Notes: generated from the letters alone by a model not told the origin. A DNA stretch of 32,000 bases from Halomicronema hongdechloris C2206 (GCF_002075285.3 NZ_CP021983.2:4200001-4232000); one strand, 5' to 3'. Shown: positions 1 to 29,699, numbered from the stretch's first letter. Numbers and translations are program-made.

Positions 1-2172
1 ACCCACCTCAAGGGGGAGGCCCGCACCCTGCGCGCCGATGTGGCCGACACCATTGCCCTACGGCGACGTAAGGGCACCTTGGATGCGATCGCATGGTTGA
101 CCTACAACCTCAGCGGCTGGGGCGTCCACGGGGTGGAGCTACGGGAAAATCTGCTCTGGACCCAGCACCTAAACCACCAACGGCCCGATGCCGGCGGTGT
201 CCCCCCCTATAGCCTGCCTGGGGTCAGCCGCTTTACTCCCATTCGCGGCGGCACCGTACCGGTGCGGGATGCCGCCATGCTCAGCCTGGTCAACACCCCC
301 TTCGATCCTTTCGGCCACACGGTGGATGTAAAACCGCCCGGCCTCGACGCGGTGCGCTACAACCTGCCCAACCTGGCCATTTTCCTCTGGCGGCTGGCGG
401 CCTATCGGGTCACCGTGTCACCCCCCGTCATCCGGGACGTGATCGACAACAGCGCCGCCGGAACCGGAGCCAGCTTTATCCTGCGAGTGGATGTCCATCC
501 CCTGGGGCAGCCGCTGCGGCTGTTTAACACCAGCCGCTTCGACCCCAACCAGAGGCCACCGGTGGTATCGCAGTTGGATCAGACCCCTGGCCCCATCCCC
601 CCAGCCCGCTTGAACCAAGGCTCCGCCGCCGGGGTCCCTGAGGCCTATGTGCAGGTGGACACCTACGACCCAGCCAGCCTCAGCAATCCCGATCTAGACA
701 CCGTCGACCGCCTCGACATCGGTGCGGTGGGCCTGCAGCTGCATCTGCCCGAACCCGAGTTTACCAACCGCTCCTGGCCCCGCTCAGAGCCGCCGCCACC
801 GCCTGCCTGGACCCTGCGAGGAGATAATCTCTGCGCCTGGGAAACCGGCCTGGCTCGCCCCCTGCAGAATAACGAGATCGCCGTCGATCCGGTGATTGGC
901 CGCCTGCTGATCGGGGTGGAGACCGCCGCCGCGGCCGCCGCCCTGGAGACGGGATTGCTGCTGACCCACACCTATGGGGCGGTGGGACCAGTGGGGGCCC
1001 ACCCGCTGTCCCGCCAGCCGCTGCCGGACACCTGGCAAGGGGAGACGGTGGCGGTGCGTCCGGTGAATTTTCACAGTGACCCCAATGGCTTGCAGGCGGC
1101 CCTACATGATATCCAGACCGCCACCGCCCCCATCGTCATCGAGATTCGAGACAGCATGGTGCATGAGCTGGATTTAGGGGCCATTGCATCCCCCCTCGAC
1201 GAAGCCGGGGGCTTCAACCTGCGCCTCAACCGCAGCCTGATCATCCGGGCCGCCAGCGGTCAGCGCCCCCTGATTCGCCTCAGCCAACCGTTGCGATTTC
1301 GCCCCAGCCGAGTCTTCGATCCCGATCCCGAGGTGCAAACTCAGTTGGATGCGGTGATGGACCGCCTCACCGTGCGCCTAGAAGGACTCTATCTGACCCG
1401 AGCAGCGGGCTTCCCCGCCGGGGACCCCCTGATTGCCCGAGCCGCCCTGCACAGCCTGGAACTGGTGGACTGCATCCTGGATCCCGGTGGTTTCCAGCAA
1501 CTGGACGGCAGTCGTGCCCCCATCCGCCCAGCCTTAGAACTAGCCAATTTCTATGGCTTTCCCCCCGGCTCCGACCAGGAGGTCGCCTTCAACCAAACCC
1601 CCGAAATTCACCTGCAGCGCACCATCAGCGGCCCCTTAACCATCGACACTGACTACCGCCTCTTTCTCACCCACGCCCTGCTCGATGCCGGCAAGGGAGT
1701 GGGCGATGCCCCCGATGACAGCTTTGCCGTGGCCGGGCCGGGGTCCCTACCAGAGGGACGCTGGGGGCCGCCTACCGTCGTGAATGGCCTCACCGTTTTC
1801 GGCCGCATGCGGGTAGATGAGATTCGCGGCCAGGGAGGCATCTGGGTCCATGCCCTAGAGGTATTGCACAACCAAACCGGCTGCCTCAAGTTCAGCTATT
1901 TCTCTGGCCAGGGGGACCGATTGCCCCAGCACCATGGCTGTGTCACTGGCCCGGAGGCGCGGCTGCGCTTCATCAGTGAGATCTGCGGCCAACCCGCCTA
2001 CGGTCAACTGGCCCGCAGCAGCGACTTTCGCATTCGCGAACGCGGCCCCGGAGACGACGCCATGGGGGCCTTCGGATTTTTGCTAGAGGCCCATAAATGG
2101 CGAAATCTGCAGATTCGCTACCGCGAATTTATGCCCCTGGGCGTGAGCCCCCTATTAATTCCGGTGACCTGA
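1..2172 (+). CDS. Phage-tail/eCIS baseplate wedge protein, P2 gpI-like (Afp12 position), 5'-partial with a long C-terminal extension
   Basis: Frame 1 has no stop from nt 1 up to the GTG at 40 used by the ORF track, so the gene probably begins upstream of the window. Stop is TGA 2170-2172. The first visible residues (..TLRADVADTIALRRRKGTLDAIAWL..) resemble, from memory, the conserved R-x-KGT block of the Tail_P2_I family. The remaining ~680 aa has no motif I recognise. The next gene starts 10 nt later, with GAGGAG (2171-2176) overlapping this stop. Confidence 0.6.
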   Translation, partial: THLKGEARTLRADVADTIALRRRKGTLDAIAWLTYNLSGWGVHGVELRENLLWTQHLNHQRPDAGGVPPYSLPGVSRFTPIRGGTVPVRDAAMLSLVNTPFDPFGHTVDVKPPGLDAVRYNLPNLAIFLWRLAAYRVTVSPPVIRDVIDNSAAGTGASFILRVDVHPLGQPLRLFNTSRFDPNQRPPVVSQLDQTPGPIPPARLNQGSAAGVPEAYVQVDTYDPASLSNPDLDTVDRLDIGAVGLQLHLPEPEFTNRSWPRSEPPPPPAWTLRGDNLCAWETGLARPLQNNEIAVDPVIGRLLIGVETAAAAAALETGLLLTHTYGAVGPVGAHPLSRQPLPDTWQGETVAVRPVNFHSDPNGLQAALHDIQTATAPIVIEIRDSMVHELDLGAIASPLDEAGGFNLRLNRSLIIRAASGQRPLIRLSQPLRFRPSRVFDPDPEVQTQLDAVMDRLTVRLEGLYLTRAAGFPAGDPLIARAALHSLELVDCILDPGGFQQLDGSRAPIRPALELANFYGFPPGSDQEVAFNQTPEIHLQRTISGPLTIDTDYRLFLTHALLDAGKGVGDAPDDSFAVAGPGSLPEGRWGPPTVVNGLTVFGRMRVDEIRGQGGIWVHALEVLHNQTGCLKFSYFSGQGDRLPQHHGCVTGPEARLRFISEICGQPAYGQLARSSDFRIRERGPGDDAMGAFGFLLEAHKWRNLQIRYREFMPLGVSPLLIPVT

Positions 2173-2182
2173 GGAGACCACG

Positions 2183-2383
2183 ATGAAAGGCGACTTTTCC
2201 AACTGGTATTTTGACCCCAACGACAACTTCAGTGGCGTTCTAGAGCAACAGGGCCGGGTGCGTCTCGACCGCGATGGGCTGGCCCAGACTCAGATCACCA
2301 CCCACTGGCAAGACACCACTGGCCAAGCCGTCCTGGGGCCGGGGGGTGATGGCCATTCCCGCCAATGCCATCGACGGCTTTAA
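2183..2383 (+). CDS. Fragment 1/3: DUF6519-like N-terminus
   Basis: ATG at 2183 sits 7 nt after a GGAG. The N-terminus MKGDFSNWYFDPNDNFSGVLEQQGRVRLDRD matches, from memory, the very conserved MKGDFSR..fdp...Y.gVl.QQGRV.LD.D start of DUF6519 proteins. The frame ends 37 nt after the G6 run. Confidence 0.55.
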   Translation: MKGDFSNWYFDPNDNFSGVLEQQGRVRLDRDGLAQTQITTHWQDTTGQAVLGPGGDGHSRQCHRRL

Positions 2384-5030
2384 GGTCACCGCCGCCAGCG
2401 TCGACGCTGGCCAGGTGGTTCTGACCCTGCAGCCTGGGCACGGCTGGGCCGATGGGCGCCTGGTGCACCTCAATGGCAGTGACCCTGTCATGCGGCTGGC
2501 CACTTACCTAACCCCCCCGATTCAAACCCCAGGGGCCACCGTCGACAGCCTTGAGGTAGGGGTGCGCGACGCCGTGGTGCTAGACGTGTGGCGCGAGGCC
2601 CTGAACGGCTTTCAGCGACCCGACACTCTGATTGAACCGGCCCTGGGTGGCCCCGACACCAGCGAGCGGCTGCACACGGCCATGGCCCTGCGGCTCTACC
2701 GGCTCAGCCCGGGGGAAACCTGCTGCACCATCGCCACCGCCTTGCAAGATCCCCTGGCCAGCCAAGGCAAACTCACGGTCTCGCTGCAACCTACCGAGGT
2801 GATCGACGGCGACTGCCCGGTGGTGGCTGGTGGCGGCTACACCGGCTTCGAACATTTGCTCTACCGCATCGAAATTGCCCAGGTCGATACTGGCATCCCC
2901 AGCTTCAAATGGTCCCAATTCAATGGCGGCTTGGTGGGCCGGGGCCGGTTTAATGCCGCCACTCGGCGGGTGATGATTACCGCTAACCTGCAAGCCATCA
3001 GCACCGCCAGACTCGATCAGTTCTATTTAGAGGCCATCCAGTACGACCCCCTGTCACCGGCCACCCCGGGCCGGGGCCACTGGCGGGTCACCTATGGGGC
3101 TCAGGCCACCTTAAATAGCGATAACGAGCTGGAACTAGCCGATACACCGTTATTTGGCACCATTCCCAGCGGTGACAGCCCCGTTTTCTTCCGGCTGTGG
3201 AATGGTATTGAGCAGATCGGCGATTTTCTCGCCCCCGTGCCCGGCAACGAGCCGGTTGAACTCCTGGACGGCATTCGCCTGGTGTTTGAGGCTCCGGCCG
3301 CCGCCAACTACCGCCCTGGAGACTACTGGACCTTCCCGGTACGGGCGGGGGAGGTGGGCAACCCCGAAACCCTGATCGATGCCCAGCCCCCAGCAGGAAT
3401 TCACTACCAGCGGGTGCCCCTGGCGGTGCTCACCTGGAATGAGGCGCAAACCCTCAGCTTTGACAATGCCGACATCGAAGACTGCCGGGAGATTTTCAAC
3501 CCCCTGACTAACCAACGGGTATGCTGCACGTTCACCGTAGGCGATGGTCGCTCCAGCCACGGTGACTTTGATGCTATTGAGGAGGCCCTGCGTCATCTAC
3601 CGGCCTCGGGGGGCGAGATTTGCCTGTTACCGGGGCTGCACGAAACCAATGCCCAGCTTGACAATCGGCACCATATCAAGATCAAGGGCTGTGACAAGCA
3701 CACCCGGGTGGTGCCCCGCGACCGGGAAGCCCCGATCTTTCAGGTGGTCGACAGCCGGTGCATTGTTTTAGAGCATATGGATTTGGTCACCCTGGGCGGG
3801 GTAGCCATGGCCCTGCACGGCAGCGAAGCCGGTTCCCTGCAAGACATCGACATCGGCCACAATCGCGTTATCGCCTGCCAGCAAGCCATTGTGGTACAGC
3901 AGGGCCAGGGGATTCACATCCACCACAACCTGATCCGCATGCTCGACAAGGCCGGAGCCGGGGTGGCTATCTATCTCGCCGCCGACGATAGCCGCATCGA
4001 CGCCAACGACATTGGCGTCATCCCTGCCCCTAGCCTGCCCCCCGTCGATCAACCCGGGGAGGAGCCAGTGCCAGACCCCACCGATCCCTGTGCCCAGTTA
4101 GAGCTGATTTATGGCAATATCCCGGTTTTCACCGCCTATATCGCCCAGATCTGGGCCATTAGCCTGCTGTTTTTGCCCAGTAATCCCTTCAATGCCCTAG
4201 GGGGGATTCAAATCGCCGGTGGTTCGGAGCGGGTAGCCATTCTCGATAATCAGATTACTGGCGGAGCCGGTAATGGCATTGCCCTGGGCACCTCCCTGGC
4301 CGAGTTTCTGGCCGGCTTAGACCTAGAGGGCGACGCCACACCCCCCACCATCAACCATGATGGCCCCGAGCTCTGGGGGGGAGTACGCTTAGCCGGCAGC
4401 CCCCAAGCCAACCTGACTCTCCAGTTTGAGCCCAGTGATGGCACCCGACTCACCGCCCTAACAGACACCGCCGGCACCTTCTTGATCGAGGCCACCCCTG
4501 GCACTTACCAGGTGTCGGTGCTCTCGCCAGGCTATCAAATCGCCGCCATTACCCCCGAGAGTCGGGGCGAATTCGGCACCTTTTATCAGATTGAATTAGA
4601 GCGCTCATCCCTGGATCTGAGCGATCTGATTGCCTTTCTCTACGACCTGTCCATTCACCACAACACCATCTCGACTATGGGGCTTGCGGGCATTGGCCTG
4701 CCCACCATTGAGGTGCCTGACGACCTAGCTAGCAACAATCAGACACTCTCGCGGCTGCTGGGATTCTATGCCCAGGTGCTGCGGATCTTCGGCAACCCCG
4801 TCCTGGGGCTCGATATCACGGACAACCATATCTTCCAATGTTTTCAGAACCCCCTCACCCAGGCCCTGCGGGACCTCATCGGCCAGCGCGGCCTCGGGGG
4901 CATTTCCCTGGGGCTCTGTGCCGACGTGACCATTCACCGCAACCGCATCGAGAAAAATGGTGGCGTCTACACCAAACCCACCTGTGGCATCTGGATTACC
5001 TATGGCGAAGAGGTGGATATCACCCCATAA
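2349..5030 (+). CDS. Fragment 2/3: right-handed beta-helix repeats plus a CarboxypepD_reg-like beta-sandwich (fibre/spike-like)
   Basis: The ORF-track frame is 2274..5030, and the first ATG in it is 2349. Beta-helix-type repeats include IDIGHNRVIACQQAIVV, IHIHHNLI, RIDANDIGV, ILDNQITGGAGNGI, LSIHHNTI, LDITDNHIF and VTIHRNRIEKNGG. An inserted segment GTFLIEATPGTYQVSVLSPGYQ is typical of the carboxypeptidase-regulatory-like fold. Confidence 0.7.
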   Translation: MAIPANAIDGFKVTAASVDAGQVVLTLQPGHGWADGRLVHLNGSDPVMRLATYLTPPIQTPGATVDSLEVGVRDAVVLDVWREALNGFQRPDTLIEPALGGPDTSERLHTAMALRLYRLSPGETCCTIATALQDPLASQGKLTVSLQPTEVIDGDCPVVAGGGYTGFEHLLYRIEIAQVDTGIPSFKWSQFNGGLVGRGRFNAATRRVMITANLQAISTARLDQFYLEAIQYDPLSPATPGRGHWRVTYGAQATLNSDNELELADTPLFGTIPSGDSPVFFRLWNGIEQIGDFLAPVPGNEPVELLDGIRLVFEAPAAANYRPGDYWTFPVRAGEVGNPETLIDAQPPAGIHYQRVPLAVLTWNEAQTLSFDNADIEDCREIFNPLTNQRVCCTFTVGDGRSSHGDFDAIEEALRHLPASGGEICLLPGLHETNAQLDNRHHIKIKGCDKHTRVVPRDREAPIFQVVDSRCIVLEHMDLVTLGGVAMALHGSEAGSLQDIDIGHNRVIACQQAIVVQQGQGIHIHHNLIRMLDKAGAGVAIYLAADDSRIDANDIGVIPAPSLPPVDQPGEEPVPDPTDPCAQLELIYGNIPVFTAYIAQIWAISLLFLPSNPFNALGGIQIAGGSERVAILDNQITGGAGNGIALGTSLAEFLAGLDLEGDATPPTINHDGPELWGGVRLAGSPQANLTLQFEPSDGTRLTALTDTAGTFLIEATPGTYQVSVLSPGYQIAAITPESRGEFGTFYQIELERSSLDLSDLIAFLYDLSIHHNTISTMGLAGIGLPTIEVPDDLASNNQTLSRLLGFYAQVLRIFGNPVLGLDITDNHIFQCFQNPLTQALRDLIGQRGLGGISLGLCADVTIHRNRIEKNGGVYTKPTCGIWITYGEEVDITP

Positions 5031-5901
5031 CACCGTTGCCGACAATGCCCCCGTTACCGCAAATGCCACGGCAACGCTGCAACCCGGCCAGCGCAGCGGC
5101 ATTGCTGCGTTTGCCTCGGCCTTCTCAATTCTCAACGTTCTCTTGGCCGAAAACCGCGATCCCGCTGCCCTGGTGAACCGCCGCCCCGCCGCTCGCATTC
5201 AAGATAACAATGTCGATCAGCCGGCCGGTCGGGCCCTGACCCTGTTGGCTTTTGGGCCAGTCACCCTGCTCAACAACCAATTCAATAGTGAACGCTCTGG
5301 CCTCACGCCGCTGGAGCGCTATGTGGGCAGCGTGCTGGTGCTGAATCTGGGGGGCTTGAACCAAGCCGGCAGCTTCATCGGCAGCCCTGGTTCGAGCGCC
5401 AGTAATGATTTTAATAACATCGCCAGCCGCCGGCCCAACTTCCAGCGCGAGACTCTCTTTCGCCTGCCCAATGGCCTCACCCTCTTTAATAGTAATCAGA
5501 CTCGCCAGGGACTAGAGCATCAAAGCCTGCTGTCGCAACTGCTGTGGAGCGCCGATGATCTCGGCTTTGACGGCAACCAATCGGAAGCCCTGTCCCCCGG
5601 CTTTCCTTTAGGCGATAACATTGGGGCATTAATTAATACTGGCCTGCTGGCCGCCACCCTGCGAGCCAGCGATAGCCGCTTCAAAGAACCCCTGCGCTCT
5701 AGCCAATCCGCCTTCCATTTTTCGCTGTTCACCTTGAGTACCCTGATGAATACCACCACGCTGAATCAGGGCAGCCATTGCATGGTTGCCAGTAATCTGG
5801 CCCCAGGCCGCGATGCGATCGCAAGGGGTAACCAGGTGCTCGACACCACCTTCTGCCCCCGCTTCAACGACACCCAGGCCTTTGCCCCCATCGATGATTA
5901 A
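5026..5901 (+). CDS. Fragment 3/3: C-terminal part of the fibre-like protein
   Basis: The ORF-track frame is 4957..5901. Sense continuation begins at HNTVADNAP (nt 5026) directly after the C4 run. Stop is TAA 5899-5901. There is no independent SD or start signal. Confidence 0.55.
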   Translation, partial: HNTVADNAPVTANATATLQPGQRSGIAAFASAFSILNVLLAENRDPAALVNRRPAARIQDNNVDQPAGRALTLLAFGPVTLLNNQFNSERSGLTPLERYVGSVLVLNLGGLNQAGSFIGSPGSSASNDFNNIASRRPNFQRETLFRLPNGLTLFNSNQTRQGLEHQSLLSQLLWSADDLGFDGNQSEALSPGFPLGDNIGALINTGLLAATLRASDSRFKEPLRSSQSAFHFSLFTLSTLMNTTTLNQGSHCMVASNLAPGRDAIARGNQVLDTTFCPRFNDTQAFAPIDD

Positions 5902-5918
5902 TGCCGTATTCAGAATTC

Positions 5919-6053
5919 AAAACTCAAAACTCAAAACTCAAAACCCAAAACTCAAAACTCAAAACTCAAAACTCAAAACCCATTCCCATCCCCCATCACT
6001 CCATCACCCCATCACCCCATCACTCCATCTCCGCCCTCCGCCCTCCGTCCTCC
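5919..6053 (+). repeat. Composite short tandem repeat block: (AAAACTC/AAAACCC)x9, (CCATCACY)x5, (GCCCTCC/GTCCTCC)x3
   Basis: Counted unit by unit. Heptamers run 5919-5981, octamers 5993-6032 and heptamers 6033-6053. The block fills the gap between the TAA at 5899-5901 and the ATG at 6066. It resembles the STRR-type heptamer repeats of cyanobacteria. Confidence 0.95.
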
Positions 6054-6065
6054 GCAGAACCTGCC

Positions 6066-7469
6066 ATGTTTAACTCACCCCGCGCCAATGCCCGCCAAAG
6101 TGACCTGAGCCAACTCGGCCATGAGCTGCTACAGGCCTTAGCTGCCGCCGCCGATGGTCAGATGGAGGGGTTACAACAAACCCGTGACACCCAAGTGGCG
6201 ATGACCGCCCTACTGCAAACCGAAGCCCAGCGGTTACAGCACAAATATGGCCCTGACCACAGCCGGGTGCAGCAAATCAACACCACCCTGCAGCGCAACA
6301 CCGCCATCGTCAATGACCTGGCGGTGGAGCTGGAAATTGCCACTATTCGTCAGCCCGACGTCGATGAAAAATCAGCCTTGGTGCAGGGGCGAGTAGTGGA
6401 TCGACGCTACCGGGGCATGGCTGGCCTGGTAGTGTACTTGGGCAATGAGCAACGGCAACCGCTGCGGTTTTTGGGCACGGCCGAGACCGATGGCTCTGGG
6501 TACTACGCCCTGACCATTGCCCCGGAAACCCTGGCCAAACTGGCAGAAGCCGCCCCCGATGGGGTGTTTCTGGGGGTGTGTACCCCCCAGGGCAGAGTAG
6601 TCTACCAGCGCCCCGAGGCCATCTTCCCCCAGGGGGGCGATCGCCTCACCTTGGAAGTCGTGCTGCAGCGCGACGATCTCAGCCCCGTCGATGGCGGCAA
6701 ACCGGTGGAACCGCCTGCTGCCAAAGCTTGGGTAGTACGAGGTCAGGTGGTCGATGCCAACACCAGTGAGGCCATTGCCGGGGTCCAGGTCAGCGCCATT
6801 GACAATAACCGCCGCTTTGACGACAAACTGGGCTCCGCCATCACCGATGCCAAGGGAACCTTTCGCATCACCTACGACTTTCAAAGCCGCCATGATGCCC
6901 CGGAAGACCGCGGCCCCGATCTCTATGTCACCGTCATTGATGAGGCCGGGAACCAGCTGTTTTCGTCTCAGTCGGAGCTGCGGCCCAATGCCAGCCGCGA
7001 GGAGGAATTTAAAATTGCGATCGCAGCTTCAACCACCCCTGGTGCAACGGAGCTGCCCTTGAATGGCTCTGTCCTCTGGTTCGCCACTGGGTCCACCAAA
7101 TTCCGCCAAGACGACGACCGCCTGAATGGAGAACGCCTGCTCAAACTAGCCATCCGCCGGACCCAGCAATTTATTCGCCAGAACCCCAACGGCCAGATTG
7201 CCCTGCAAGGCTATGCCAGCAGCGAAGACGGGACCCCAGAAGAGGCGCTCTCCCTGGCAGAAAAACGGGCCGAGGTCGTGCAAGCGATGCTAGTTCAGGC
7301 CAATCTACCCGCCAATCAACTCTCCGTCGCTGCCCAAGGCATCGATGACAGCTACGCCGAGGTGTCACTCAACCAACGCGTCGACATTGTACTGTTGCCA
7401 GGACGTCTAGGACGCGATCGCATCGGCAACCGCCCGCGCGGCAATCGGTTCGATCCTAGCCGCTTTTGA
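6066..7469 (+). CDS. Coiled-coil / beta-sandwich (CarboxypepD_reg or transthyretin-like) protein with a C-terminal OmpA-family peptidoglycan-binding domain
   Basis: The start is set to ATG 6066 (MFNSPRANARQ..), because the ORF-track start at 5901 only translates the repeat block. Beta-sandwich-like segments include VQGRVVDRRYRGMAGLVVYLGN, VRGQVVDANTSEAIAGVQVSAIDN..KGTFRITY and DLYVTVIDEAGNQLF. The C-terminus, F.TGSTKF..(n)..IALQGYASSEDGTPEEALSLAEKRAEVVQAMLVQANLPANQLSVAAQG..NQRVDIVLLP, follows the OmpA_C pattern (GxxS/D..G....N..LS..RA..V...L.......G.G....NRRV.I). Confidence 0.8.
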   Translation: MFNSPRANARQSDLSQLGHELLQALAAAADGQMEGLQQTRDTQVAMTALLQTEAQRLQHKYGPDHSRVQQINTTLQRNTAIVNDLAVELEIATIRQPDVDEKSALVQGRVVDRRYRGMAGLVVYLGNEQRQPLRFLGTAETDGSGYYALTIAPETLAKLAEAAPDGVFLGVCTPQGRVVYQRPEAIFPQGGDRLTLEVVLQRDDLSPVDGGKPVEPPAAKAWVVRGQVVDANTSEAIAGVQVSAIDNNRRFDDKLGSAITDAKGTFRITYDFQSRHDAPEDRGPDLYVTVIDEAGNQLFSSQSELRPNASREEEFKIAIAASTTPGATELPLNGSVLWFATGSTKFRQDDDRLNGERLLKLAIRRTQQFIRQNPNGQIALQGYASSEDGTPEEALSLAEKRAEVVQAMLVQANLPANQLSVAAQGIDDSYAEVSLNQRVDIVLLPGRLGRDRIGNRPRGNRFDPSRF

Positions 7470-7478
7470 GAAAGTACC

Positions 7479-9323
7479 ATGGCCCATGCATTGGCGAAGC
7501 TATCAAACACGAAAGACTCGGCTCAAGGGCATCAGAAGCCAGCGCTAAAGGCCCGACAGGTCTCCTCCCCATCCACGGGTCTGCCCTTAATACAACCCAA
7601 AGTGGGGTGTGCTTGCGGCGGCGGCTGTCCTCGCTGTCAAGCAAAGAATACTATACAAACCAAACTTCAAATCAGCGACCCTGGGGATCAATACGAACGC
7701 GAAGCCGATCAAATTGCTCAGCAAGTGCTCCATAGCGAGTCTGAGAAATCTCCACAGAATTCTCAAGAACCTCCTCAATTTCATTCTGAAAAGTTGCCAC
7801 CTGAAGGAATACAAACAGCATATCGACAGGCTATGGAAGAGGAAGAAGATGAGGATATCCAACTTAAGCAACGAGAGATAAATGCACCAACAGCTAGTAC
7901 AAATCTTGCTGCATCTGTAACCGCTCAGAGTGGTCGACCATTATCGCCTGCTGAACGGGCATATTTTGAGCCGCGATTTGGGCAAAATTTCTCGAGTGTG
8001 CGTATTCATGACGAATCCCATGCCCACGCTGCGGCTAAGGCGATTCATGCCCGGGCTTTTACGTTAGGTAGCCACATTGCTTTTGGCTCAAGTGAATACC
8101 GACCAGAGAGCTTTGATAGTCGTCTACTCCTAGCCCATGAACTAGTTCATACACTACAGCAACGTTCTGGTATCCAACCTCAGTTGATTCAGCGACGACA
8201 AATCCAGGTTAGGGGACGTACCTTTGAAGTAGGGGATGCAAAAGTTGCTAATCGAGATGCTGAGAGAGATATTCTGGGGCAAGGCGTACTGTTCCCTGGA
8301 TCGGATCAGAGACACATTCTCGTAAGTGGTGATGATCGATTAGGGTATGAAGTCTCGCACACCGATCCGGAAGATCCGTTCCGCTGGTCTAAATTCAAAG
8401 ATATTGTTGATAATGGCAAAATCGATATCAAGGCAGTATCTTTGGCAGATACCTTTCCTACCTTGATAGTCCAAAATAGACAATCACGACAGCAAGACAT
8501 TTCTCTGATTTCCCTAGGGGGCAGTGGTATCACCTTAGTACGTGAGTCTTTACTCCGACAAATTTCGCCGAATGAACCGACTATCACAGCGAGTAATGAC
8601 CCCAATCGCGACAAAATTTTCTACGTGCCTCGGGGATCTGGGCGAGGTGCACTGTCCAGTAATTCTCTGGCCCATGAGTTATTTGGTCACTATTGGCTCG
8701 CACTGCAGGGAGTTCCTTTCTTGCATCCACCCTCACGGCAGGATCTGCTGAGGCAAATACAACAGGGTAGAAACATTTCAGGCGAGGCATTCCGCAATGC
8801 GGTTGGCAGGCATCAGCGCCTAGGCGTATTAACTGAAGCTCATGGAATTCGAGGTCCCTTTGGTCATGTCTTTGAGGGGACAGTACGTGACTACATCGAT
8901 CGGCTGGTAGGGTCAGAAACAGGACGGGTTGAATCTCCGACTCGTCGAGTGAGCAACGAGCACTTGATGGCCGAACTGCAAGCACTCTACGACGAGTTGC
9001 AAAATCCCGGGGGGTTGGTTCTACAGGCTGGTGGTCGCGGTGTAATATCGGCTGACGTGGCAAGACACTGGAGCTTTGTCGCCAATAGTTATGAGGTTCT
9101 AAGGCATATACCCGCTGGACCTCCCGGGAGTAGTTTCAGCGCGGGTATGCTTTCTGAGGGAGTTCGCGACCTAATTGTAGAGTGGTATCGGGACATACTT
9201 TCTGAGGACCAACAGCGCGCTTTTAGGAATATTTTGGGGGCCGCCGGCTCTCGCTTCCGAAGTGGCATGCCTCCCAACTTAGCTCGCGATGTTCTTGCCG
9301 AAATTAATCGACGTGAAAGGTGA
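7479..9323 (+). CDS. DUF4157 domain protein (HExxH) with an unassigned ~385-aa C-terminal domain; candidate eCIS-associated effector
   Basis: ATG is 9 nt after the previous stop. The N-terminus has the Cys-rich GCACGGGCPRCQ and DQYEREADQIAQQV. Residues ~153-228, RPLSPAERAYFEPRFGQNFSSVRIHDES..AFTLGSHIAFG....LLAHELVHTLQQ, are the classic DUF4157 signature (HELVH at nt 8136-8150). The C-terminal domain contains HELFGH (nt 8673-8690). Hand-counted GC of single 60-nt lines inside the gene is 35-58%, against 60-70% in the flanking genes. Confidence 0.85.
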   Translation: MAHALAKLSNTKDSAQGHQKPALKARQVSSPSTGLPLIQPKVGCACGGGCPRCQAKNTIQTKLQISDPGDQYEREADQIAQQVLHSESEKSPQNSQEPPQFHSEKLPPEGIQTAYRQAMEEEEDEDIQLKQREINAPTASTNLAASVTAQSGRPLSPAERAYFEPRFGQNFSSVRIHDESHAHAAAKAIHARAFTLGSHIAFGSSEYRPESFDSRLLLAHELVHTLQQRSGIQPQLIQRRQIQVRGRTFEVGDAKVANRDAERDILGQGVLFPGSDQRHILVSGDDRLGYEVSHTDPEDPFRWSKFKDIVDNGKIDIKAVSLADTFPTLIVQNRQSRQQDISLISLGGSGITLVRESLLRQISPNEPTITASNDPNRDKIFYVPRGSGRGALSSNSLAHELFGHYWLALQGVPFLHPPSRQDLLRQIQQGRNISGEAFRNAVGRHQRLGVLTEAHGIRGPFGHVFEGTVRDYIDRLVGSETGRVESPTRRVSNEHLMAELQALYDELQNPGGLVLQAGGRGVISADVARHWSFVANSYEVLRHIPAGPPGSSFSAGMLSEGVRDLIVEWYRDILSEDQQRAFRNILGAAGSRFRSGMPPNLARDVLAEINRRER

Positions 9324-9513
9324 TTTGCAGATTACTTGGACATGAACCAGAGTAAGCTTTCAGAGAGATGGTGATATATCTATTCAAGATTGCCCAATTC
9401 CTGAAAGGCCTCACATCAATACTCTAAATTATGGTTAAAAATATTGTTCTCAACTTTCCAGCAGCTTTCGTACCTCGCTAGCTGCAAAACTGCTGTCGGC
9501 TGATTTTGTCTGT

Positions 9514-10506
9514 TTATTCGTGATTGGGGAAGTGGCAGGCGGCCCAGTGGTTGGGATCTAGCGCTTGCAGCACTGGCATCTCTTGCTGACAGCGGTCTTC
9601 ACCTTTGGGGCAGCGGCCATAGAGGCGGCATACGCTGGGGTCGGGGTTAATCGGGCTGCGGGGTTCACCGGTTAGGGGAATCGGGTGGGGTTTAGCTTCG
9701 AAGCTGGGGATGGCGGAAATCAGGGCCTCGGTGTAGGGGTGGCGAGGGTGATCGAACACGGCTTCCACCGGACCAGCTTCAATGATTTTGCCCAGGTACA
9801 TAACCAGGATGCGATCGCACAACAACCGCACCACATTCAAATCATGGGAGACGAATAGATAGCTCATGCCCAGCCGCCGCTTCAGGTCCGCCAGCAGATG
9901 TAGAATCACCGCCTGCACCGAGACATCCAGTGCCGACGTTGGCTCATCCAGCACCAGCAGCTTGGGATTGAGGGCAATGGCGCGAGCGATGCCCACCCGT
10001 GCCTTCTGCCCCCCTGAGAGTTGGTGGGGAAAGCGGCTCAATAACTCCTGGGGCAGGCCTACCAGGTCTGCCAATTCGGCTGCCCGCTGCTGCAATTGCC
10101 CCTTGTCCTGCTGGTGGCCCAGCCGCCGAATCGGTTCTGTGATGGTGTCATAGGCGGTAAAGCGAGGATTGAGGCTGTCGGTGGGGTCTTGGAACACCAA
10201 CTGAATCCCGGCCCGGTAAGCGCTCTGAGGAAACTGCCGCACCGCCACCGTGCTGAGGATGATGTCCTCGAATCGGATTTCCCCGGCCGTGACATCCAGC
10301 AGGCGGGTAATCAGGCGAATCAACGTGGACTTGCCACAGCCCGACTCTCCCACCAGCCCCAGGCTTTCTCCTGGTTGAATGTCGAAGGACACGTGATCCA
10401 CTGCACGGAGATGGGTCTGCTTGCCCACGGGGAAGGTTTTGCAGAGATCGCGCACCTGTAACAGGGGAGTCGCGGGGGTTGGCGGGGGTTGGGTGAGTGG
10501 GGACAT
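9514..10506 (-). CDS. ABC transporter ATP-binding protein, oligopeptide/dipeptide (OppF/DppF) type
   Basis: Motifs present: Walker [10 protein letters not shown], signature LSGGQKARV, Walker [14 protein letters not shown]-loop FVSHDL, and the Opp/Dpp C-terminal region [12 protein letters not shown] plus a Cys-rich tail. The start is set to ATG 10506 (MSPLTQPP..), because the ORF-track start at 10569 runs through a repeat block. Confidence 0.9.
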
Positions 10507-10563
10507 AAGCTGGAGAGAGGTGGATGGGTAATGGGGTGTTGGGGGATGGGAATGAGTTTTGAA
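10507..10563 (-). repeat. C-rich (on minus strand) repeat-derived leader sharing cores with the blocks at 5919-6053 and 15586-15932
   Basis: The reverse complement reads TTCAAAACTCATTCCCATCCCCCAACACCCCATTACCCATCCACCTCTCTCC. The core AAAAC(T/C)CATTCCCATCCCCCA also occurs at 5975-5995. The core TTACCCATCCAC also occurs at 15729-15740 and 15860-15871. Confidence 0.7.
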
Positions 10564-10568
10564 TAACA

Positions 10569-10843
10569 AACTTTACCACCCAAGATCATTTTCAGGCGAA
10601 ACATGGTGGTTTCAGCAATCGAACGGCGATGGTAATGCGACTGTCGTTTCCACGCCCTGCGTCCGTGTTGGCGAATCGCCCGCAGGTTTTCATCGCGGGG
10701 ATGGGGGGCGCTTTGCAATTACCGTGCTGCCAAAATTTGGCAGTCTTCTGCGGCAGAATCCCGGCTTTGGCTTCCCACTCCTGCAGCGCCTCATAGCAGC
10801 GGCGTTTGTCGTAGGCACCATCGGCGGATACTTGCTCGTTAAC
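10569..10843 (-). pseudogene. IS5-family (IS903-group-like) transposase C-terminal remnant, frameshifted and truncated at both ends
   Basis: Minus-strand translation gives VNEQVSADGAYDKRRCYEALQEWEAKAGILPQKTAKFWQHGNCKAPP. After a frame change in the G6 run at 10703-10708 it continues HPRDENLRAIRQHGRRAWKRQSHYHRRSIAETTMFRLKMILGGKV. From memory this parallels the IS903 transposase tail (ADGAYD..., Y.RRSIAETAMYRVKQLFGG). There is a stop immediately upstream (10844-10846). The last ~35 aa and the whole N-terminal two thirds are absent. Confidence 0.75.
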
Positions 10844-10864
10844 TCATGTTAGAGAAATTTCAAT

Positions 10865-10904
10865 GATTGTCCTGCGGATTGTCCTGCGGATTGTCCTTAG
10901 GACA
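10865..10904. repeat. 12-bp tandem repeat GATTGTCCTGCG x2 plus GATTGTCCTTAG, ending in the perfect palindrome TGTCCTTAGGACA
   Basis: Read directly: units at 10865-10876, 10877-10888 and 10889-10900, and the palindrome at 10892-10904. Confidence 0.9.
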
Positions 10905-10906
10905 TG

Positions 10907-11146
10907 TTAGAGTGTCCATAGAAAGACTGAAGGGCTCAAGGAGACTGCCTCCACTGGTGGGCAAAGCTCCTGCTGGCGAACATAGGCCAGAGTGGTTAAC
11001 AGTCCATCGCCAAAATAATTGGTGATGCCAGTGCTAACACCAACATCACCAAAGCTACTAAAGCTAAAGTAACCAAAAAGTAAACGCGTTAGAGCCAGTT
11101 GCCGCTGGCTCTTTTCATTGTAAGCCTTCAGCAGCACGCCAGCCAA
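10907..11146 (-). CDS. Hypothetical small protein (79 aa), doubtful
   Basis: This is only an ORF with a TTG start abutting the stop of the upstream gene. There is no motif, no SD, and the region is low GC. It is listed because it sits in an otherwise unexplained 240 nt. Confidence 0.2.
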   Translation of the reverse strand: MAGVLLKAYNEKSQRQLALTRLLFGYFSFSSFGDVGVSTGITNYFGDGLLTTLAYVRQQELCPPVEAVSLSPSVFLWTL

Positions 11147-15231: not shown

Positions 15232-15585
15232 CTCCCCTGCTCGATCGCCTCTGGCCTGCTGAGGCGTTTTGTCTGGCGCTGGAGACGGGTAGGAGAATGT
15301 TAACGATATGACCAGGGCGGCTTGTGGTGAGCGATGTCGAATCACTGCCTGGATTCTGATGAGGCTTGTTAGTCGATGGTGATGGACTTCGATAAGACTA
15401 CGCTTAATCGGGTAGCTCAGGGATCTCACCCGAGGGGATCTCGTTCCCCCTCGGACTCCTACGACCAGGGCGTTCCGCCGCCCTGGACCCCGCGGAAGGG
15501 CTTGTCGGTTAGTCGTCCAAGATCGCGTTGCATCGGTGAGGAGCCGGTTTTCTGCATTGGGCGCGGCAACCACGCCCCTACCCTG

Positions 15586-15932
15586 TCCCCTGTTCCCTTT
15601 ACCCACCTACTCGCCTACCCGCCTACCCATCCATGTCTCGTGGGTCCTTCTTTGGCCACACATTGCTTTCCCTGTTTCAAGCGGCAAGACCCACGCTACT
15701 CCCCATCACCCCATCACTCCATCACCCTTTACCCATCCACTCGTCACTCGTCACTTCCCCCCTTCCCGTCCTCCGCCCTCCACCCTCCGTTTTCCTTTTC
15801 CCCATCACCCCTAAGCCCTCCGGGCAGGCTCCGCCACCACCCCATCACTCCATCACCCTTTACCCATCCACTCGTCACTCGTCACTCGTCACTCCTCACT
15901 TCCCCCTTTCCCGTCCTCCGTTCTCCGTTTTG
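15586..15932 (+). repeat. Composite C-rich repeat region with a 47-nt perfect direct duplication
   Basis: CCCCATCACTCCATCACCCTTTACCCATCCACTCGTCACTCGTCACT occurs at 15709-15755 and again at 15840-15886. Both copies continue into TTCCCC..CCCGTCCTCCG..CTCCGTTTT, giving full copies of ~15701-15794 and ~15840-15931. A partial third copy (CCCTTTACCCACCTACTCG) is at ~15594-15612. The internal unit is the heptamer (CACTCGT)n. The block ends 3 nt before the ATG at 15935. Confidence 0.9.
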
Positions 15933-15934
15933 CC

Positions 15935-17278
15935 ATGAATCGCCTCTTAACTATCCTCTTGATCGGTCTCGCGTTTCTCCTGCTGGCACCGCCAGCGGAG
16001 GCCTTCTGTGGCTTCTATGTGGCTCAGGCCGACAGCAGTTTGTATAACCAGGCCTCTCAAGTTGCGATCGCACACCATCATCACCACACCACCCTGACCA
16101 TGGCCAATGACTACCAAGGGGATGTCTCAGAATTTGCCTTGGTGGTGCCAGTGCCGACGGTAATTGCACCAGAGCAGGTGCAGATTGCCGATCCTGCCAT
16201 CATGCAGCGGTTGGATAGCTTCAGTGCTCCCCGGTTGGTGTACTACCCCGAGACCATCGCCCCCTGCAGTGAGCTCCAACATTTACTGTGGCCTTACACC
16301 CTCGCCTCTGGCGGGATAGCCCAACTGGAAAGCCGACGCGACCAAGCCGCCTCAGCCTTGGGCGTGACGGTGGAATCGCGCTTTACCCTAGGAGAGTACG
16401 ACATTCTGGTGTTGAGTGCTGAAGCATCAGACGGGCTAGAGACCTGGCTGCGACAGAACGACTATCGCTTGCCTCAGGGAGTCAGTCAGGTATTAAAGCC
16501 CTACATTCGTCAGGGCATGAAGTTCTTCGTGGCCCGGGTCAATTTGGCTGAATTTGACCGCCTCGGCTACCAGATCCTGCGGCCGCTGCAAATTAACTAC
16601 GAGTCTCCCCGGTTCATGCTGCCCATTCGTCTGGGCATGGTGAATGCCGACGGTGAGCAGGATCTGATTGTTTACCTACTATCTTCCCGGGGACGGGCCG
16701 AGACCACTAACTACCGCCTGTTAGAGATTCCGACCGATGACACCCTGCCTGGCTTTGTGGCCGACGATTTTGGTGCTGTGTACCCGACCATCTTCCGGCA
16801 CGCCCATCAACGGGCTGGGGGCAACGTCGCCTTCCTCGAATATGCCTGGGACATGAGCTGGTGTGATCCTTGCGCCGCTGATCCCCTCAGCCGCGACGAG
16901 CTGGAGCAGGCTGGCGTCTCCTGGTTAGACCATCAAGGGGGCCCCCCCAATGTCTATCTCACCCGGCTGCATGTACGCTACCGTCGCGACACCTTCCCCG
17001 AAGATCTGGTGTTTCAAGAAACCGGCAATCGTCGCAACTTTCAGGGACGCTATGTGATCAAACGCCGCTCCGTCAGCGACACCGATGCCGGAGCATGCCT
17101 ACAGCAGACGCTGAGCCACCTGCGAAGTGACTGGCAGCGAACTCGGGAAGCCGATTCCACCTCGAATGACTTTCCCACCTTCCTGCGACATTATCTGCTG
17201 AATGAGGCCGGGTGGACGACGCCAATCGCTGGAGTGGCCGTGTCTATCCCAGTTTCGATGCCGACGCCGATCCGCTGA
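15935..17278 (+). CDS. DUF2330 domain protein (secreted/periplasmic), possibly continuing in the next ORF
   Basis: Signal peptide MNRLLTILLIGLAFLLLAPPAEA followed by FCGFYVAQADSSLYNQASQVAI...TLTMANDYQGDVSEFALVVPVP. I recognise this from memory as the DUF2330 N-terminal signature. Confidence 0.8.
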   Translation: MNRLLTILLIGLAFLLLAPPAEAFCGFYVAQADSSLYNQASQVAIAHHHHHTTLTMANDYQGDVSEFALVVPVPTVIAPEQVQIADPAIMQRLDSFSAPRLVYYPETIAPCSELQHLLWPYTLASGGIAQLESRRDQAASALGVTVESRFTLGEYDILVLSAEASDGLETWLRQNDYRLPQGVSQVLKPYIRQGMKFFVARVNLAEFDRLGYQILRPLQINYESPRFMLPIRLGMVNADGEQDLIVYLLSSRGRAETTNYRLLEIPTDDTLPGFVADDFGAVYPTIFRHAHQRAGGNVAFLEYAWDMSWCDPCAADPLSRDELEQAGVSWLDHQGGPPNVYLTRLHVRYRRDTFPEDLVFQETGNRRNFQGRYVIKRRSVSDTDAGACLQQTLSHLRSDWQRTREADSTSNDFPTFLRHYLLNEAGWTTPIAGVAVSIPVSMPTPIR

Positions 17279-20994: not shown

Positions 20995-22476
20995 TCACGA
21001 TTGGAGCTCAGAGGGGCTTATCTCCATCAGGGGCTGCAGCCAGGGTTTTGGAGCCAGGGTCCGCTGTTCTGCCGCCAGATCAACGCTGGGATCCACTAGA
21101 AGTTGGGGGGAACGACCGTTGAGAGACTGCATGACTCTAGCTCTCACCTCAACCCCTGGATACCCAGAACGCTCAGCCGCCGCTGCCAGGAAATGACTAA
21201 ATTGCACGATCAAATCGGGACGGCTACCGATTTTACGCGCCTGCCAACGGGCCAAATAGTCTTCTGGGGTTACCGTCCAAGCGGTCTGGCTATCGGGATG
21301 GAACACCCAAAACTCAACCTCTGTGCGTTTGCTCAGCAGCTTCATGTGCCACGAGTATTGATGACCCTCATAGGTCCAATTAACGTTGCCGGGATAGAGA
21401 AAATGGCGCAGCGGAAAGAGCAGTTGCCAGCCTAAATACAGGCCCAAGCCAGCCAAAATGGCTGAGCGTTTCATGCGGATAGGGGCCACGCGAGACATCT
21501 GTCGTCGGTTGGGTGGCCTGCCAGCTTGGACTGAATCGAGGCCTAGCCAACCACGCAGATGGGCCAGAAGCTGGCGGGGAAAAGAGGGCGGAAAGAACAG
21601 AGCCGTGGCGGCAATCATGAACCAGGGAAAGATACCAATGGAGAAGAGGCGGACATTCATCAGGTGAAACAGCACCACACAGCCAAAGGCTACCGGACGA
21701 GTGCGGCGCCATAACAGGAAGGGAGTTGCCCCCAGATCCAGGAGCAGGCCGCCATAACTCAGCAAATAGACCATCCATTCGGTGGTGAATAGATGACCAA
21801 TCACGGGAAAGTCAGTGCGGGCAGCTAGCCAAGTGCGCAGGGGTTCTCCGGCAAACCAATCGGGGTTGAGTTTAGCCACCCCGGCATAGAAATAGACCAA
21901 ACCTAATTGAGCCCGTAACAGCCATAGGGTCCAGGCCGAGGCTGCCTGGGCGGCGATCTCAGGTCGCCGTCGGGCGTCCACCGAAAAGGCTCGATGGGCG
22001 GGCAGCCAGATCATCAAAAAGCTGATGAGACAGATGAGGTAGAAATGATTCAGGTAGCGTGCCTGCTCCAGTAAGAAGCTGTAGGTAAAGCCCAGGAAGA
22101 ATAATAGGGCGCTGAGGCGATAGTGCCAGCCCACCATGATCGCCAGGGCTAGAATGCCCAAGCCTGCCAATAGAATGTACATGCCGGGACCCGGCAGGGG
22201 CGTGACCCAGTCGAAGCCGTAGTAGGTAAAGTTCATCACTGGATCGATCCAGTAACGACTGATCCAGCCCTTACTGAAGTAGCGCCAGATCTCCCACAGC
22301 ATGATGGCACCAAAGGCGATGCGGAAATAGACTAGGCTGGCAATGTCGATGGGGGTAAATAGATGTTGGATCAAATGTTGGACCAAGGGCCGAAGCCACG
22401 CCGTAGGAGATGCCGCGATGAATACCTGACGGGAATGGAGACCAGGTCTAGCCATGGGAACAGACTGAGTCAACAC
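20995..22476 (-). CDS. HTTM domain protein (vitamin K-dependent gamma-carboxylase-like)
   Basis: The N-terminal polytopic region SLVYFRIAFGAIMLWEIWRYF..W..RY.DP..NFTYYGFDWV.P..G matches the HTTM domain from memory. The C-terminal soluble part (..YSWHMKLLSKR..PDLIVQFSHFLA..SLNGRSPQLLVDPSVDL) resembles the VKGC lumenal region. Confidence 0.85.
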   Translation of the reverse strand: MLTQSVPMARPGLHSRQVFIAASPTAWLRPLVQHLIQHLFTPIDIASLVYFRIAFGAIMLWEIWRYFSKGWISRYWIDPVMNFTYYGFDWVTPLPGPGMYILLAGLGILALAIMVGWHYRLSALLFFLGFTYSFLLEQARYLNHFYLICLISFLMIWLPAHRAFSVDARRRPEIAAQAASAWTLWLLRAQLGLVYFYAGVAKLNPDWFAGEPLRTWLAARTDFPVIGHLFTTEWMVYLLSYGGLLLDLGATPFLLWRRTRPVAFGCVVLFHLMNVRLFSIGIFPWFMIAATALFFPPSFPRQLLAHLRGWLGLDSVQAGRPPNRRQMSRVAPIRMKRSAILAGLGLYLGWQLLFPLRHFLYPGNVNWTYEGHQYSWHMKLLSKRTEVEFWVFHPDSQTAWTVTPEDYLARWQARKIGSRPDLIVQFSHFLAAAAERSGYPGVEVRARVMQSLNGRSPQLLVDPSVDLAAEQRTLAPKPWLQPLMEISPSELQS

Positions 22477-23854: not shown

Positions 23855-23995
23855 TTTAGGAAGATGATTAGCTAATCCTTGAAAACAAGTGGTTTATCAA
23901 AAAGAGTGTCATAAACCTTGAGCCTTAAGTCCTCTGACATCTCCATTGGGGCAGAGTCTGAGTTGGACAAGATATAGATTTTAGAGAGTAAAATT

Positions 23996-26619: not shown

Positions 26620-27293
26620 GGGAAGAGATTGTTAACTTGTTAGAACTTTGCTTACTAGAGAGTCCCGATATTCTGTAGTTTGATACTTAATCCAACTGCC
26701 TACTCAAGTTGGGCAAAGCCAAGGGAAATCCCCCTAGAGTAGCTGTCCGGTTTGAGTAGAGAGGGCGGTCATTAATGATGATGCCCCGCTGCATCTGGCC
26801 TGGGAAACCGCTGCAACGGGGCTAGCCCTCAATCTACGTCGAGAAGCTGTAGTCTATGGTAGCGCACAGATATACCTCCAAGCGGGCTGTCCCGTTTGGG
26901 TTATTTGTCTACAGCAGAGGGGCCATTGCTAGTCGATGGTCGCCCTTGATGCTAGTTCCGAACGATGGTGTTAGTTGGCATCGCCAAGGAGATCGCTACC
27001 CTAGGCTCAAGGATTCGAGAGCACCCATGGTCCTCTGGCTGTTTAGCCATTGCTGGCTGTGGGCGTTTTATCAATGCAGGGAAGCTATGTTTCCGGGACG
27101 GTCGGTTAATTTCCCCCTAGGTGCTAGGGCGGCTTACCCATCACGGTTGGTGATAGATACATAGCTTGTTCTATCTAGCTGTCTCGTGTCCAGCTATCTC
27201 GTTCTCATGCCGATACGGTGACTTACCTCGGTAAGCATCGTGCGGTTTTGCTTCCATCCACTCTGTTTTGTCAGTAGTAGAGAGGAGAGTCCC

Positions 27294-29588: not shown

Positions 29589-29699
29589 CCAGGCTCGATG
29601 TTATTGAGCTCGGGATCTTGAGAACTCGATGCTCAGAGCTAACCTGGTTCACTTCCAATGCAGATTTAAGCACTCAAACCTCAATCATCGATTTTGATC

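Follow-up and report, generated by a model that had tools for sequence, protein, structure and literature searches.

A candidate contractile injection system cargo protein with a putative metallohydrolase domain in Halomicronema hongdechloris

The gene at positions 7479 to 9323 of the window, as the whole 32,000-nucleotide (nt) stretch of Halomicronema hongdechloris C2206 DNA analysed here is called, raises the question of what a DUF4157 protein carries at its C-terminus when no domain database has a name for it. DUF4157 marks toxins of extracellular contractile injection systems (eCISs; PMC8213781, PMC11297309), and DUF4157 proteins are the main predicted eCIS payloads, about a thousand of them with an unnamed C-terminal domain (CTD; PMC11297309); 983 predicted eCIS-associated toxins (EATs) carry DUF4157 without any other annotated domain (Danov 2024, PMC11297309). 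An earlier note, made from the sequence of the window, had taken the gene for a candidate injected effector, and the relatives collected here point the same way, occurring in or beside contractile injection system (CIS) clusters and, as regards the core of the CTD, at the tips of Rhs proteins. The gene probably encodes a cargo effector of a phage-tail-like CIS, of the eCIS/tCIS type, with a new putative metallohydrolase toxin domain. The delivery logic, DUF4157 cargo of a CIS, is known; what is new is the payload family and its use on two delivery platforms.

A C-terminal domain outside the known families

The open reading frame (ORF) contains a DUF4157 domain, as had been claimed, and the HELVH and HELFGH motifs and a Cys-rich segment are present where the earlier note placed them (Table 1). 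The sole Pfam match of the protein is PF13699 (eCIS_core, formerly DUF4157), which covers amino acids (aa) 154-231 with E=3.2e-26 and 91.8 bits (cut-off, 22 bits) and spans profile positions 1-78 of 79; no other Pfam family was matched by the whole protein at E<=0.1. The HELVH zinc-binding motif lies within this domain at aa 220-224. The domain is related to the effector domain of VgrG2b (6H56_A; phmmer E=0.0038), and aa 163-228 additionally give a weak M48-like match in PADLOC.

The remainder of the protein, described previously as ~385 aa that could not be assigned, proved just as unassignable by remote homology and structure, structural families included. From aa ~232 to 614 there was no match in Pfam, NCBIfam, PHROGs or PADLOC, no significant match of the CTD among PDB sequences (phmmer and hmmsearch), and no match at E<=10 between 22 CTD sequences and the Pfam peptidase models, including Tox-MPTase2-5. 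A full-length AlphaFold2 model built from 27 homologs has a mean predicted local distance difference test score (pLDDT) of 80.7, with the N-terminal domain (NTD) below 50 and the CTD above 90, and a model of the CTD core reaches a pLDDT of 92.6 and a predicted template modelling score (pTM) of 0.91. Foldseek searches of the PDB with both models returned no E below 0.1 (best TM, 0.17), and a search of BFVD with the full-length model returned no significant match. A duplicated or diverged DUF4157 origin of the CTD was considered and rejected, as hhalign pairs just five columns of the two domains (LAHEL). The CTD core is thus described here as an undescribed alpha/beta domain and, judging by its conserved residues, a putative metallohydrolase toxin module.

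The family defined by this domain is widely scattered and rare. Among 5.8 billion proteins, a word-indexed search recovered 28 clusters, all with an N-terminal DUF4157 except for three short proteins of 259-411 aa that are probably fragments, and an exhaustive profile search of 1.84 billion representatives returned 146 matches, 81 of them below 1e-30. The 185,579 species genomes yielded only seven loci (in Rhodovulum, Galbibacter, Sorangium, three Acidobacteriota and a Desulfobaccales bin), and the family as a whole, though very infrequent, reaches at least six phyla. Profile searches with subgroup 2 and with the short forms returned 6 and 8 proteins, respectively, and missed several of their own queries.

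Conservation within the family concentrates on a small number of residues. The first histidine of HELFGH and the adjacent glutamate are without exception (H399 and E400, each 134/134), and G403 (133/135), H404 (134/135) and H416 (137/138) are nearly so; this near-invariance across ~135 members is why the HExxGH string is judged not to be a chance match. In the models the helix bearing HELFGH (aa 396-409) is preceded by a beta-hairpin, and the loop bearing H416 includes G411 and P413, both at least 90% conserved. Within the PEDPFRW block the 27-sequence alignment shows no variation at D299, R302 and W303, and family-wide counts are 110/118 for D299, 106/119 for F301 and 110/119 for R302; a GTVxDYI block is likewise conserved. 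In a more distant subgroup the pentapeptide HEFGH replaces HELFGH, and since the two variants interchange the site is best written HE(x)xGH-x11-H. A glutamate beside the first histidine is the classical general base of zincins. By their conservation, H399, H404 and H416 are proposed as metal ligands and E400 as the general base, and the site would suggest a zinc-dependent hydrolase, with a peptidase as the likeliest kind. The word peptidase is here carried by the motif and its invariance, because the model matches no known metallopeptidase fold.

Outside of the core, the protein varies among its relatives. The helical insertion at aa 418-447 is missing in many family members (P0006, P0010-P0021 and others), and the helical tail at aa 493-614 is a trait of the long forms linked to DUF4157; Rhs tips and short forms lack it and align to profile positions ~50-225 only. 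The NTD is predicted to be mostly disordered, with disorder read from model confidence alone (pLDDT <50 at aa 1-42, 55-64, 88-119 and 124-136), and 52% of its residues are Q, S, P, T, A or G. One short helix within the low-confidence aa 1-136 bears the conserved motif DQYEREADQIAQQVL, and a D/ExxExEAD motif is found in 37 of the 66 family proteins with a long NTD. The CxC..CxxC cluster recurs in 16 of the same 66, with a comparable cluster (CACGGGCPIC) in the Rhodovulum locus L010. No hydrophobic signal segment is present in the protein, the maximum Kyte-Doolittle hydropathy over 19 residues (1.24) falling inside the CTD.

Genomic settings and proposed delivery of the family

The ORFs upstream of the gene are homologous to distal CIS genes, which indicates that the distal end of a CIS cluster occupies the beginning of the window, with the gene as the last member of that cluster; the gene is co-oriented with these ORFs and follows the preceding one by 10 nt. 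By tblastn, the ORF at 1-2172 corresponds to L002 17585-18202 (31%), to Rhodovulum L010 2696-4726 (45% over 720 aa) and to L012 20474-20944. In Rhodovulum euryhalinum (L010) the order is the same, with a baseplate gene followed by homologs of the ORF at 1-2172 (45%), of the fibre-like gene at 2274-5901 (43% and 36%) and of the DUF4157-CTD gene (43%). A metagenomic contig encodes a 93-96% identical homolog (P0001) in an equivalent context. In the best explanation of these homologies, the remaining CIS cluster would lie just upstream of the window.

Relatives elsewhere lie inside or beside CIS clusters. In five loci (L002, L004, L006, L012 and L015) the gene lies inside the CIS cluster, directly 3' of the Pvc16_N and AAA+ ATPase genes, and a second tube gene, the spike and gp25 come after it, while in L005 the family member adjoins the cluster. 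In an AlgoCIS-like cluster from the Bacteroidota (L017), the subgroup-2 member P0120 follows the tape-measure and AAA genes and is itself followed by two further DUF4157 cargo genes, one of them deaminase-type, and a PoNi immunity gene. The earlier observation that no obvious immunity gene follows the gene in the window holds, as the interval 9324-9513 contains no plus-strand ORF of at least 20 aa and only 36-aa and 23-aa ORFs on the minus strand; further, neither the candidate immunity ORF beside the Rhs toxin P0109 nor the small ORFs found ahead of the gene in CIS clusters have a homolog in the window. Scans for promoters and terminators around the gene found sites no more numerous than in shuffled controls, and the interval 9324-9513 itself gave no terminator-like site.

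Beyond the CIS, the CTD core forms the extreme C-terminus of two RHS-repeat proteins, P0105 and P0109, directly after the Rhs end motif. The end motif before the core reads NPVRLTDPQGT in P0109 and NSPVNKIDPTGQ in P0105, and in terms of the core-end pattern PxxxxDPxG, YSYVRANPVRLTDPQGT precedes the domain at 694-858 of P0109 and SYVSNSPVNKIDPTGQ precedes the domain at 392-604 of P0105. The core is also present in giant proteins with multiple DUF4157 domains, beside Aspzincin_M35, Endonuclease_NS_2 or Peptidase_S8, and in about a dozen stand-alone forms of 170-330 aa. Its use both as an Rhs tip and as a module of multi-toxin polyproteins indicates that the CTD core behaves as a polymorphic toxin domain. 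Near P0109 there are ABC_toxin_N genes, and a 129-aa ORF (L008 3449-3838) that overlaps the P0109 stop codon matches PG_binding_1 (E=3.8e-5), with no homolog in the window or the other loci. Envelope-related domains recur in P0096, which consists of OmpA, PG_binding_1 and the CTD without DUF4157, in P0078, which ends in LysM and whose last module has another HExxGH-x11-H string (HELCGH...KH), and in a PG_binding_1 gene (L005 13596-13970) 2 kb from P0028. Separately, a subtilase (Peptidase_S8) gene (L001 2751-4130) directly follows P0002, the closest non-cyanobacterial homolog, and in P0067 an S8 domain and the CTD are fused in one 1425-aa protein; a functional link between Peptidase_S8 and the CTD is possible, an association not present in the window.

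A sequence of events can be proposed by analogy with AlgoCIS, in which Cgo1 and Cgo2 fill the tube lumen (PMC8894135) and the disordered NTD is required for loading while DUF4157 is dispensable (10.64898/2026.05.27.728243). The disordered N-terminal 150 aa, free of a Sec signal, would act as the loading sequence, by which the AAA+ ATPase of the cluster would thread the protein into the tube lumen, and the protein would be released on contraction. The DUF4157 zincin-like domain comes next; such a domain was dispensable for loading in AlgoCIS, yet in VgrG2b/Tpe1 it is itself a peptidase toxin active in the periplasm. The label of adaptor given to it in the earlier note is an assumption, because the domain is related to the periplasm-acting zinc-peptidase toxin VgrG2b. 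The C-terminal 380 aa would be the payload, presumably acting through metal-dependent hydrolysis, and the core would serve as the cleavable C-terminal tip in the two Rhs proteins. As a first guess the target may be a cell-envelope substrate, and a eukaryotic or cytosolic target is also conceivable. An envelope substrate that is not exposed in the cytoplasm of the producer would agree with the OmpA, PG_binding_1 and LysM partners and with the missing immunity gene, and such envelope action may explain why CIS-linked copies have no immunity gene.

A broader proposal is offered tentatively, as something that could well prove otherwise: the core (aa ~240-480) may found a new metallohydrolase family with a fold unrepresented in the PDB, circulating as a toxin module between DUF4157/CIS and Rhs/Tc-type platforms. 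If so, it would be the second family, after M49, with interchanging hexa- and pentapeptide zinc motifs, and a proven zinc peptidase site would add a family with unusual ligand spacing to the metallopeptidase catalogue.

Composition, history and surroundings of the gene

The gene stands out from its surroundings in composition. Its GC content is 0.499, compared to 0.583±0.028 in the other 17 ORFs (z=-2.9), the GC content at third codon positions (GC3) is 0.411 vs 0.670±0.051 (z=-5.1), no other ORF of the window diverges as much in codon usage (Kullback-Leibler divergence, 0.219 vs 0.03-0.17), and the lowest-GC 1845-nt stretch of the 32 kb begins at 7631. The low GC given in the earlier note is thus real and is accompanied by deviant codon usage, and the note's counts for 60-nt lines from 7640 to 9500 were reproduced exactly (0.35-0.58; mean, 0.48); the flanks, given there as 60-70% GC, are at 58-65%, and the gene remains clearly lower. 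The same note had proposed a horizontally exchanged cargo module fused to a DUF4157 adaptor. The atypical composition bears out part of this; however, GC3 is low in the NTD (0.38), DUF4157 (0.35) and CTD (0.44) alike, so that the foreign-looking unit is the whole gene and not a cargo grafted on an adaptor. Across the family, pairwise identities of the DUF4157 part show a moderate correlation with those of the CTD (rho 0.36; Mantel p ~0.0025), which indicates partial co-inheritance, and from these comparisons the DUF4157-CTD fusion appears to be old and in part co-inherited.

Whole-gene cassette exchange is the more likely explanation of the low GC, a reading drawn from the comparison with contig L003 together with the patchy distribution over phyla. 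The gene and its flanks are equally 90% nucleotide-identical to L003 in one continuous alignment, and acquisition therefore predates the divergence of these strains. That the gene is not recent and yet unameliorated could instead reflect selection on the gene itself, with rare codons, for example, throttling translation of a toxic protein, and GC3 of the DUF4157-CTD gene is indeed below that of its neighbours in five further loci from different hosts (L001, L003, L006, L007 and L010), including a copy within an operon (L006; 0.45 vs 0.61-0.79). Selection is nevertheless the less plausible cause and on balance unlikely: the scatter over at least six phyla itself implies horizontal spread, GC3 in L005 is above that of the neighbours and the difference in L002 and L004 is small, a variation that fits varied donors better than a uniform pressure, and the AT-rich tract does not end with the gene but extends into the intergenic sequence after it (GC 0.395).

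Relative to the 90-93% identical L003, the window has a 140-nt insertion at 5908-6047, in which heptamer repeats, (CAAAACT)n, occupy 5918-5980 and repeats of the octamer CCCCATCA occupy 5991-6032, and a 44-nt inverted copy (84%) at 10519-10562 lies exactly where synteny with L003 stops. A composite mobile element, with the 44-nt inverted repeats (5973-6016 and 10519-10562) bracketing the OmpA-domain, effector and oppF-like genes, was rejected as the source of the GC dip, as the left copy belongs to the 140-nt insertion, around which synteny is conserved, the right copy lies at a different break in synteny, and GC3 is normal in both neighbours of the effector gene within the bracket. ORFs that start at 5901 or end at 10569 run into these repeats, and their N-termini are therefore probably artefacts; the OmpA-domain gene probably begins at M55 of the ORF called from 5901 (~6066), and its 467-aa homolog in L003 aligns to aa 55-521. 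Beyond the gene, a comparison of 9514-11146 of the window with L003 4653-10501 shows that a five-gene opp-type ABC transporter operon, complete in L003, is reduced in the window to its last ATPase gene (oppF-like), with different sequence past the repeat at 10519-10562, in what looks like a rearrangement or deletion breakpoint.

Several other features of the window were recorded (Table 1 gives those of the gene and its upstream neighbours). The fibre-like gene is split into two overlapping ORFs by one extra C, relative to L003, in a C-run at ~5023-5026, and is one continuous ORF in L003 and in Rhodovulum L010 (4713-9209, 1498 aa; 43% and 36% identity); the single-nucleotide difference may reflect slippage, a pseudogene or an error in sequencing, and, if real, could leave the injection system of the strain with no intact fibre. 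An insertion-sequence transposase (DUF772 and DDE_Tnp_1) is encoded at 22642-23688 (+), and a second low-GC patch (0.46) lies at 23501-24000. Further, the interval 15501-16000 has a GC skew of -0.48 and an AT skew of -0.32 around the ORFs 15376-16047 and 15935-17278 (DUF2330), the minus-strand gene at 20995-22476 combines HTTM with a vitamin-K-dependent gamma-carboxylase lumenal domain (E=2e-92 and 3e-41), and psaA and psaB, located at 27240-31928, mark the window as cyanobacterial.

Table 1. Features of the candidate effector gene and its immediate surroundings, in window coordinates
Feature	Position	Strand	Basis or remark
Distal CIS gene, open at the left edge of the window	1..2172	+	homolog of the CIS-cluster gene located after both large baseplate genes
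Fibre-like gene (DUF6519, right-handed beta-helix, CarboxypepD_reg)	2274..5901	+	Pfam; split into 2274-5030 and 4957-5901
CarboxypepD_reg and OmpA-domain gene	6066..7469	+	Pfam, NCBIfam; stops 10 nt before the candidate effector gene
Complete ORF, 614 aa, ATG start	7479..9323	+	NTD, DUF4157, new CTD; candidate CIS cargo effector
N-terminal region, aa 1-153	7479..7937	+	mostly disordered (predicted), hydrophilic, no Sec-type signal; candidate loading sequence by analogy
Cys cluster CACGGGCPRC, aa 44-53	7608..7637	+	direct sequence reading
Conserved NTD helix motif KLQISDPGDQYEREADQIAQQVL, aa 62-84	7662..7730	+	model helix aa 71-85
DUF4157 / eCIS_core zincin-like domain, aa 154-231	7938..8171	+	PF13699; HELVH at 8136-8150
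CTD core, aa 240-480, alpha/beta, putative metal-dependent hydrolase/toxin module	8196..8918	+	core-only model, conservation
PEDPFRW motif, aa 297-303, second most conserved core block	8367..8387	+	family alignments
HELFGH, aa 399-404, in helix 396-409, proposed metal-binding/catalytic motif	8673..8690	+	near-invariance
H416 in loop GxPxxH, 12 residues beyond H404, proposed third metal ligand	8724..8726	+	conservation
Lineage-specific helical insertion, aa 418-447	8730..8819	+	gapped alignment columns; model helices aa 420-428, 435-448
C-terminal helical extension, aa 493-614	8955..9320	+	model helices aa 493-508, 525-541, 559-573, 576-589, 600-613
AT-rich convergent intergenic region, no immunity-type ORF	9324..9513		GC 0.395

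Competing readings and comparison with known systems

Two other functions can be proposed for the protein. Firstly, it may be an accessory enzyme that works for the producer, either a protease for cargo maturation or release or an enzyme of wall remodelling or lysis through which particles could assemble, be anchored or escape. Its fixed slot directly after the AAA+ ATPase in five clusters resembles that of a core gene, DUF4157 is classed as an eCIS core domain and such proteins have been considered by Geller et al. as possible contributors to producer lysis (PMC8213781), and both the lack of an immunity gene, in the window and at the in-slot loci, and the recurrent peptidoglycan-binding partners (OmpA, PG_binding_1, LysM) would suit such a role. 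Against this, the core is found at the tip of two Rhs proteins and among the modules of multi-toxin polyproteins, a placement typical of exported toxins, members are found far from CIS genes, the slot after the ATPase also hosts cargo with varied CTDs (e.g., the deaminase-type protein with PoNi in L017), and a family with 7 loci in 185,579 species genomes is too rare for a general CIS component. An accessory role is consequently considered improbable.

Secondly, the protein may well be injected, with the HExxGH...H constellation being non-hydrolytic or else not the toxic principle; it could form a structural metal site or a binding surface, and toxicity would then come from some other property. 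The precedent is Cgo1, in which mutation of both metalloprotease motifs, one of them in the CTD, left toxicity in E. coli intact (PMC8894135); additionally, the CTD has no recognisable peptidase fold, and the subgroup-2 member P0154 lacks the third histidine. However, the near-absolute invariance of the histidines and the glutamate across sequences of 30% identity and three delivery contexts is the pattern of a catalytic site, the glutamate next to the first histidine is where the general base of zincins is found, and Cgo1 need not belong to the same family. A non-catalytic site is accordingly held to be about as doubtful as an accessory role, and the reading as an injected cargo effector with a metal-dependent activity is preferred.

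Several points weigh against this preferred reading. The activity and delivery proposed for the family are read from sequences and models, as is the ligand role of H399, H404 and H416 from their conservation, no known metallopeptidase fold matches the confident model (best Foldseek E=0.1, TM <=0.17), and toxicity in E. coli of Cgo1, the one DUF4157 cargo with a second metalloprotease motif in its CTD for which this was examined, is independent of both motifs, as noted above. The core CIS genes (sheath, tube and baseplate) are outside of the window and the link to a CIS is drawn from distal genes, the upstream fibre-like gene is split such that the injection system of the strain may not be intact, and several members lie apart from detectable CIS genes (L007, L013, L014, L016 and L018). 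The Rhs fusions number only two, and the last search brought no more beyond P0105 and P0109, word-indexed searches being patchy. Further, the peptidoglycan idea draws on few co-occurrences of common domains, and LysM is also found in DUF4157 toxins of unrelated activity (PMC11297309).

The weakest reading, suggested by the earlier note from the HExxGH spacing, would make the CTD a divergent branch within peptidase family M49 (dipeptidyl peptidase III, DPP III, type), and it is rejected as extremely improbable, since the second M49 motif (EExR/KxxE/D, also written EEXR/KAE/D) occurs in none of 22 members, the protein itself included (regular expression), the Peptidase_M49 profile matches none of the 22 at E<=10, DPP III is absent among the PDB sequence and profile matches, Foldseek of two confident models is negative against a PDB that holds DPP III structures, and the CTD core has ~240 aa compared to ~700 aa for DPP III. 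DPP III is a roughly 700-aa enzyme of two lobes. The likeness that remains is the hexapeptide signature HEXXGH in a helix, represented in the protein by HELFGH (aa 399-404; invariant in the family), alongside pentapeptide variants, which coexist with the hexapeptide in M49 as well (PMC5805324, PMC9820243). Of the second motif and the further metal ligands that the note had proposed to look for, only the latter had a counterpart, in the invariant H416 as a candidate; the third ligand, a glutamate in M49, is thus likely a histidine in the CTD.

A second family of zinc enzymes to which the site can be compared is the metzincins (HExxHxxGxxH), which share with it a constellation of three histidines, a glutamate by the first of these and a conserved glycine after the helix, at which the chain can turn back. 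The spacing differs, being HExxH-x5-H in metzincins and HExxGH-x11-H in the CTD, and no Foldseek similarity to metzincins in the PDB was found. With respect to delivery, the Rhs/TcC tips have in common with the protein the CTD core, which follows the Rhs end motif in P0105 and P0109, whereas the protein has no Rhs repeats, would take the DUF4157/CIS route and possesses an extra helical tail of 120 aa.

Among toxins of contractile machines, VgrG2b and Tpe1 of the type VI secretion system are metallopeptidases that act in the periplasm, and VgrG2b (6H56), a zinc metallopeptidase toxin (PMC6899460), is a relative of the DUF4157 domain of the protein (E=0.0038) with no detectable similarity to the new CTD. 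The Tpe toxins are encoded with a small periplasmic immunity gene directly downstream, while the gene in the window is without one. In this latter respect it resembles the EATs (PMC8213781, PMC11297309), for which an immunity gene is often absent and with which it shares an N-terminal DUF4157 followed by a variable CTD and a gene position inside or at the 3' end of a CIS operon. The validated domains of EATs include deaminases, ADP-ribosyltransferases, nucleases, transglutaminases and others, none with HE(x)xGH-x11-H. To this diversity is added a payload family with set boundaries, five near-invariant candidate catalytic residues and a confident model without a solved analogue, which occurs in cyanobacterial, proteobacterial, Bacteroidota, Acidobacteriota, Myxococcota and Desulfobacterota contexts and is re-used as an Rhs tip; it offers a tractable candidate for a new toxin activity and a possible payload or scaffold for engineered injection systems.

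In the cyanobacteria, two DUF4157 proteins of the Anabaena CIS have likewise been proposed as cargo (PMC8894136). A close parallel is found in the AlgoCIS of Algoriphagus machipongonensis, whose cargo proteins Cgo1 (A3HTB0) and Cgo2 were located experimentally in the tube lumen, while the protein described here is known from its gene alone. The CTD of Cgo1 also has a second metalloprotease-type motif, described as HExxH and compared here by that description only. Like the protein of H. hongdechloris, Cgo1 and Cgo2 consist of a disordered NTD, a central DUF4157 and a folded, variable CTD, and cargo of both kinds is encoded in CIS clusters, with the family member P0120 sitting in a cluster that is itself AlgoCIS-like.

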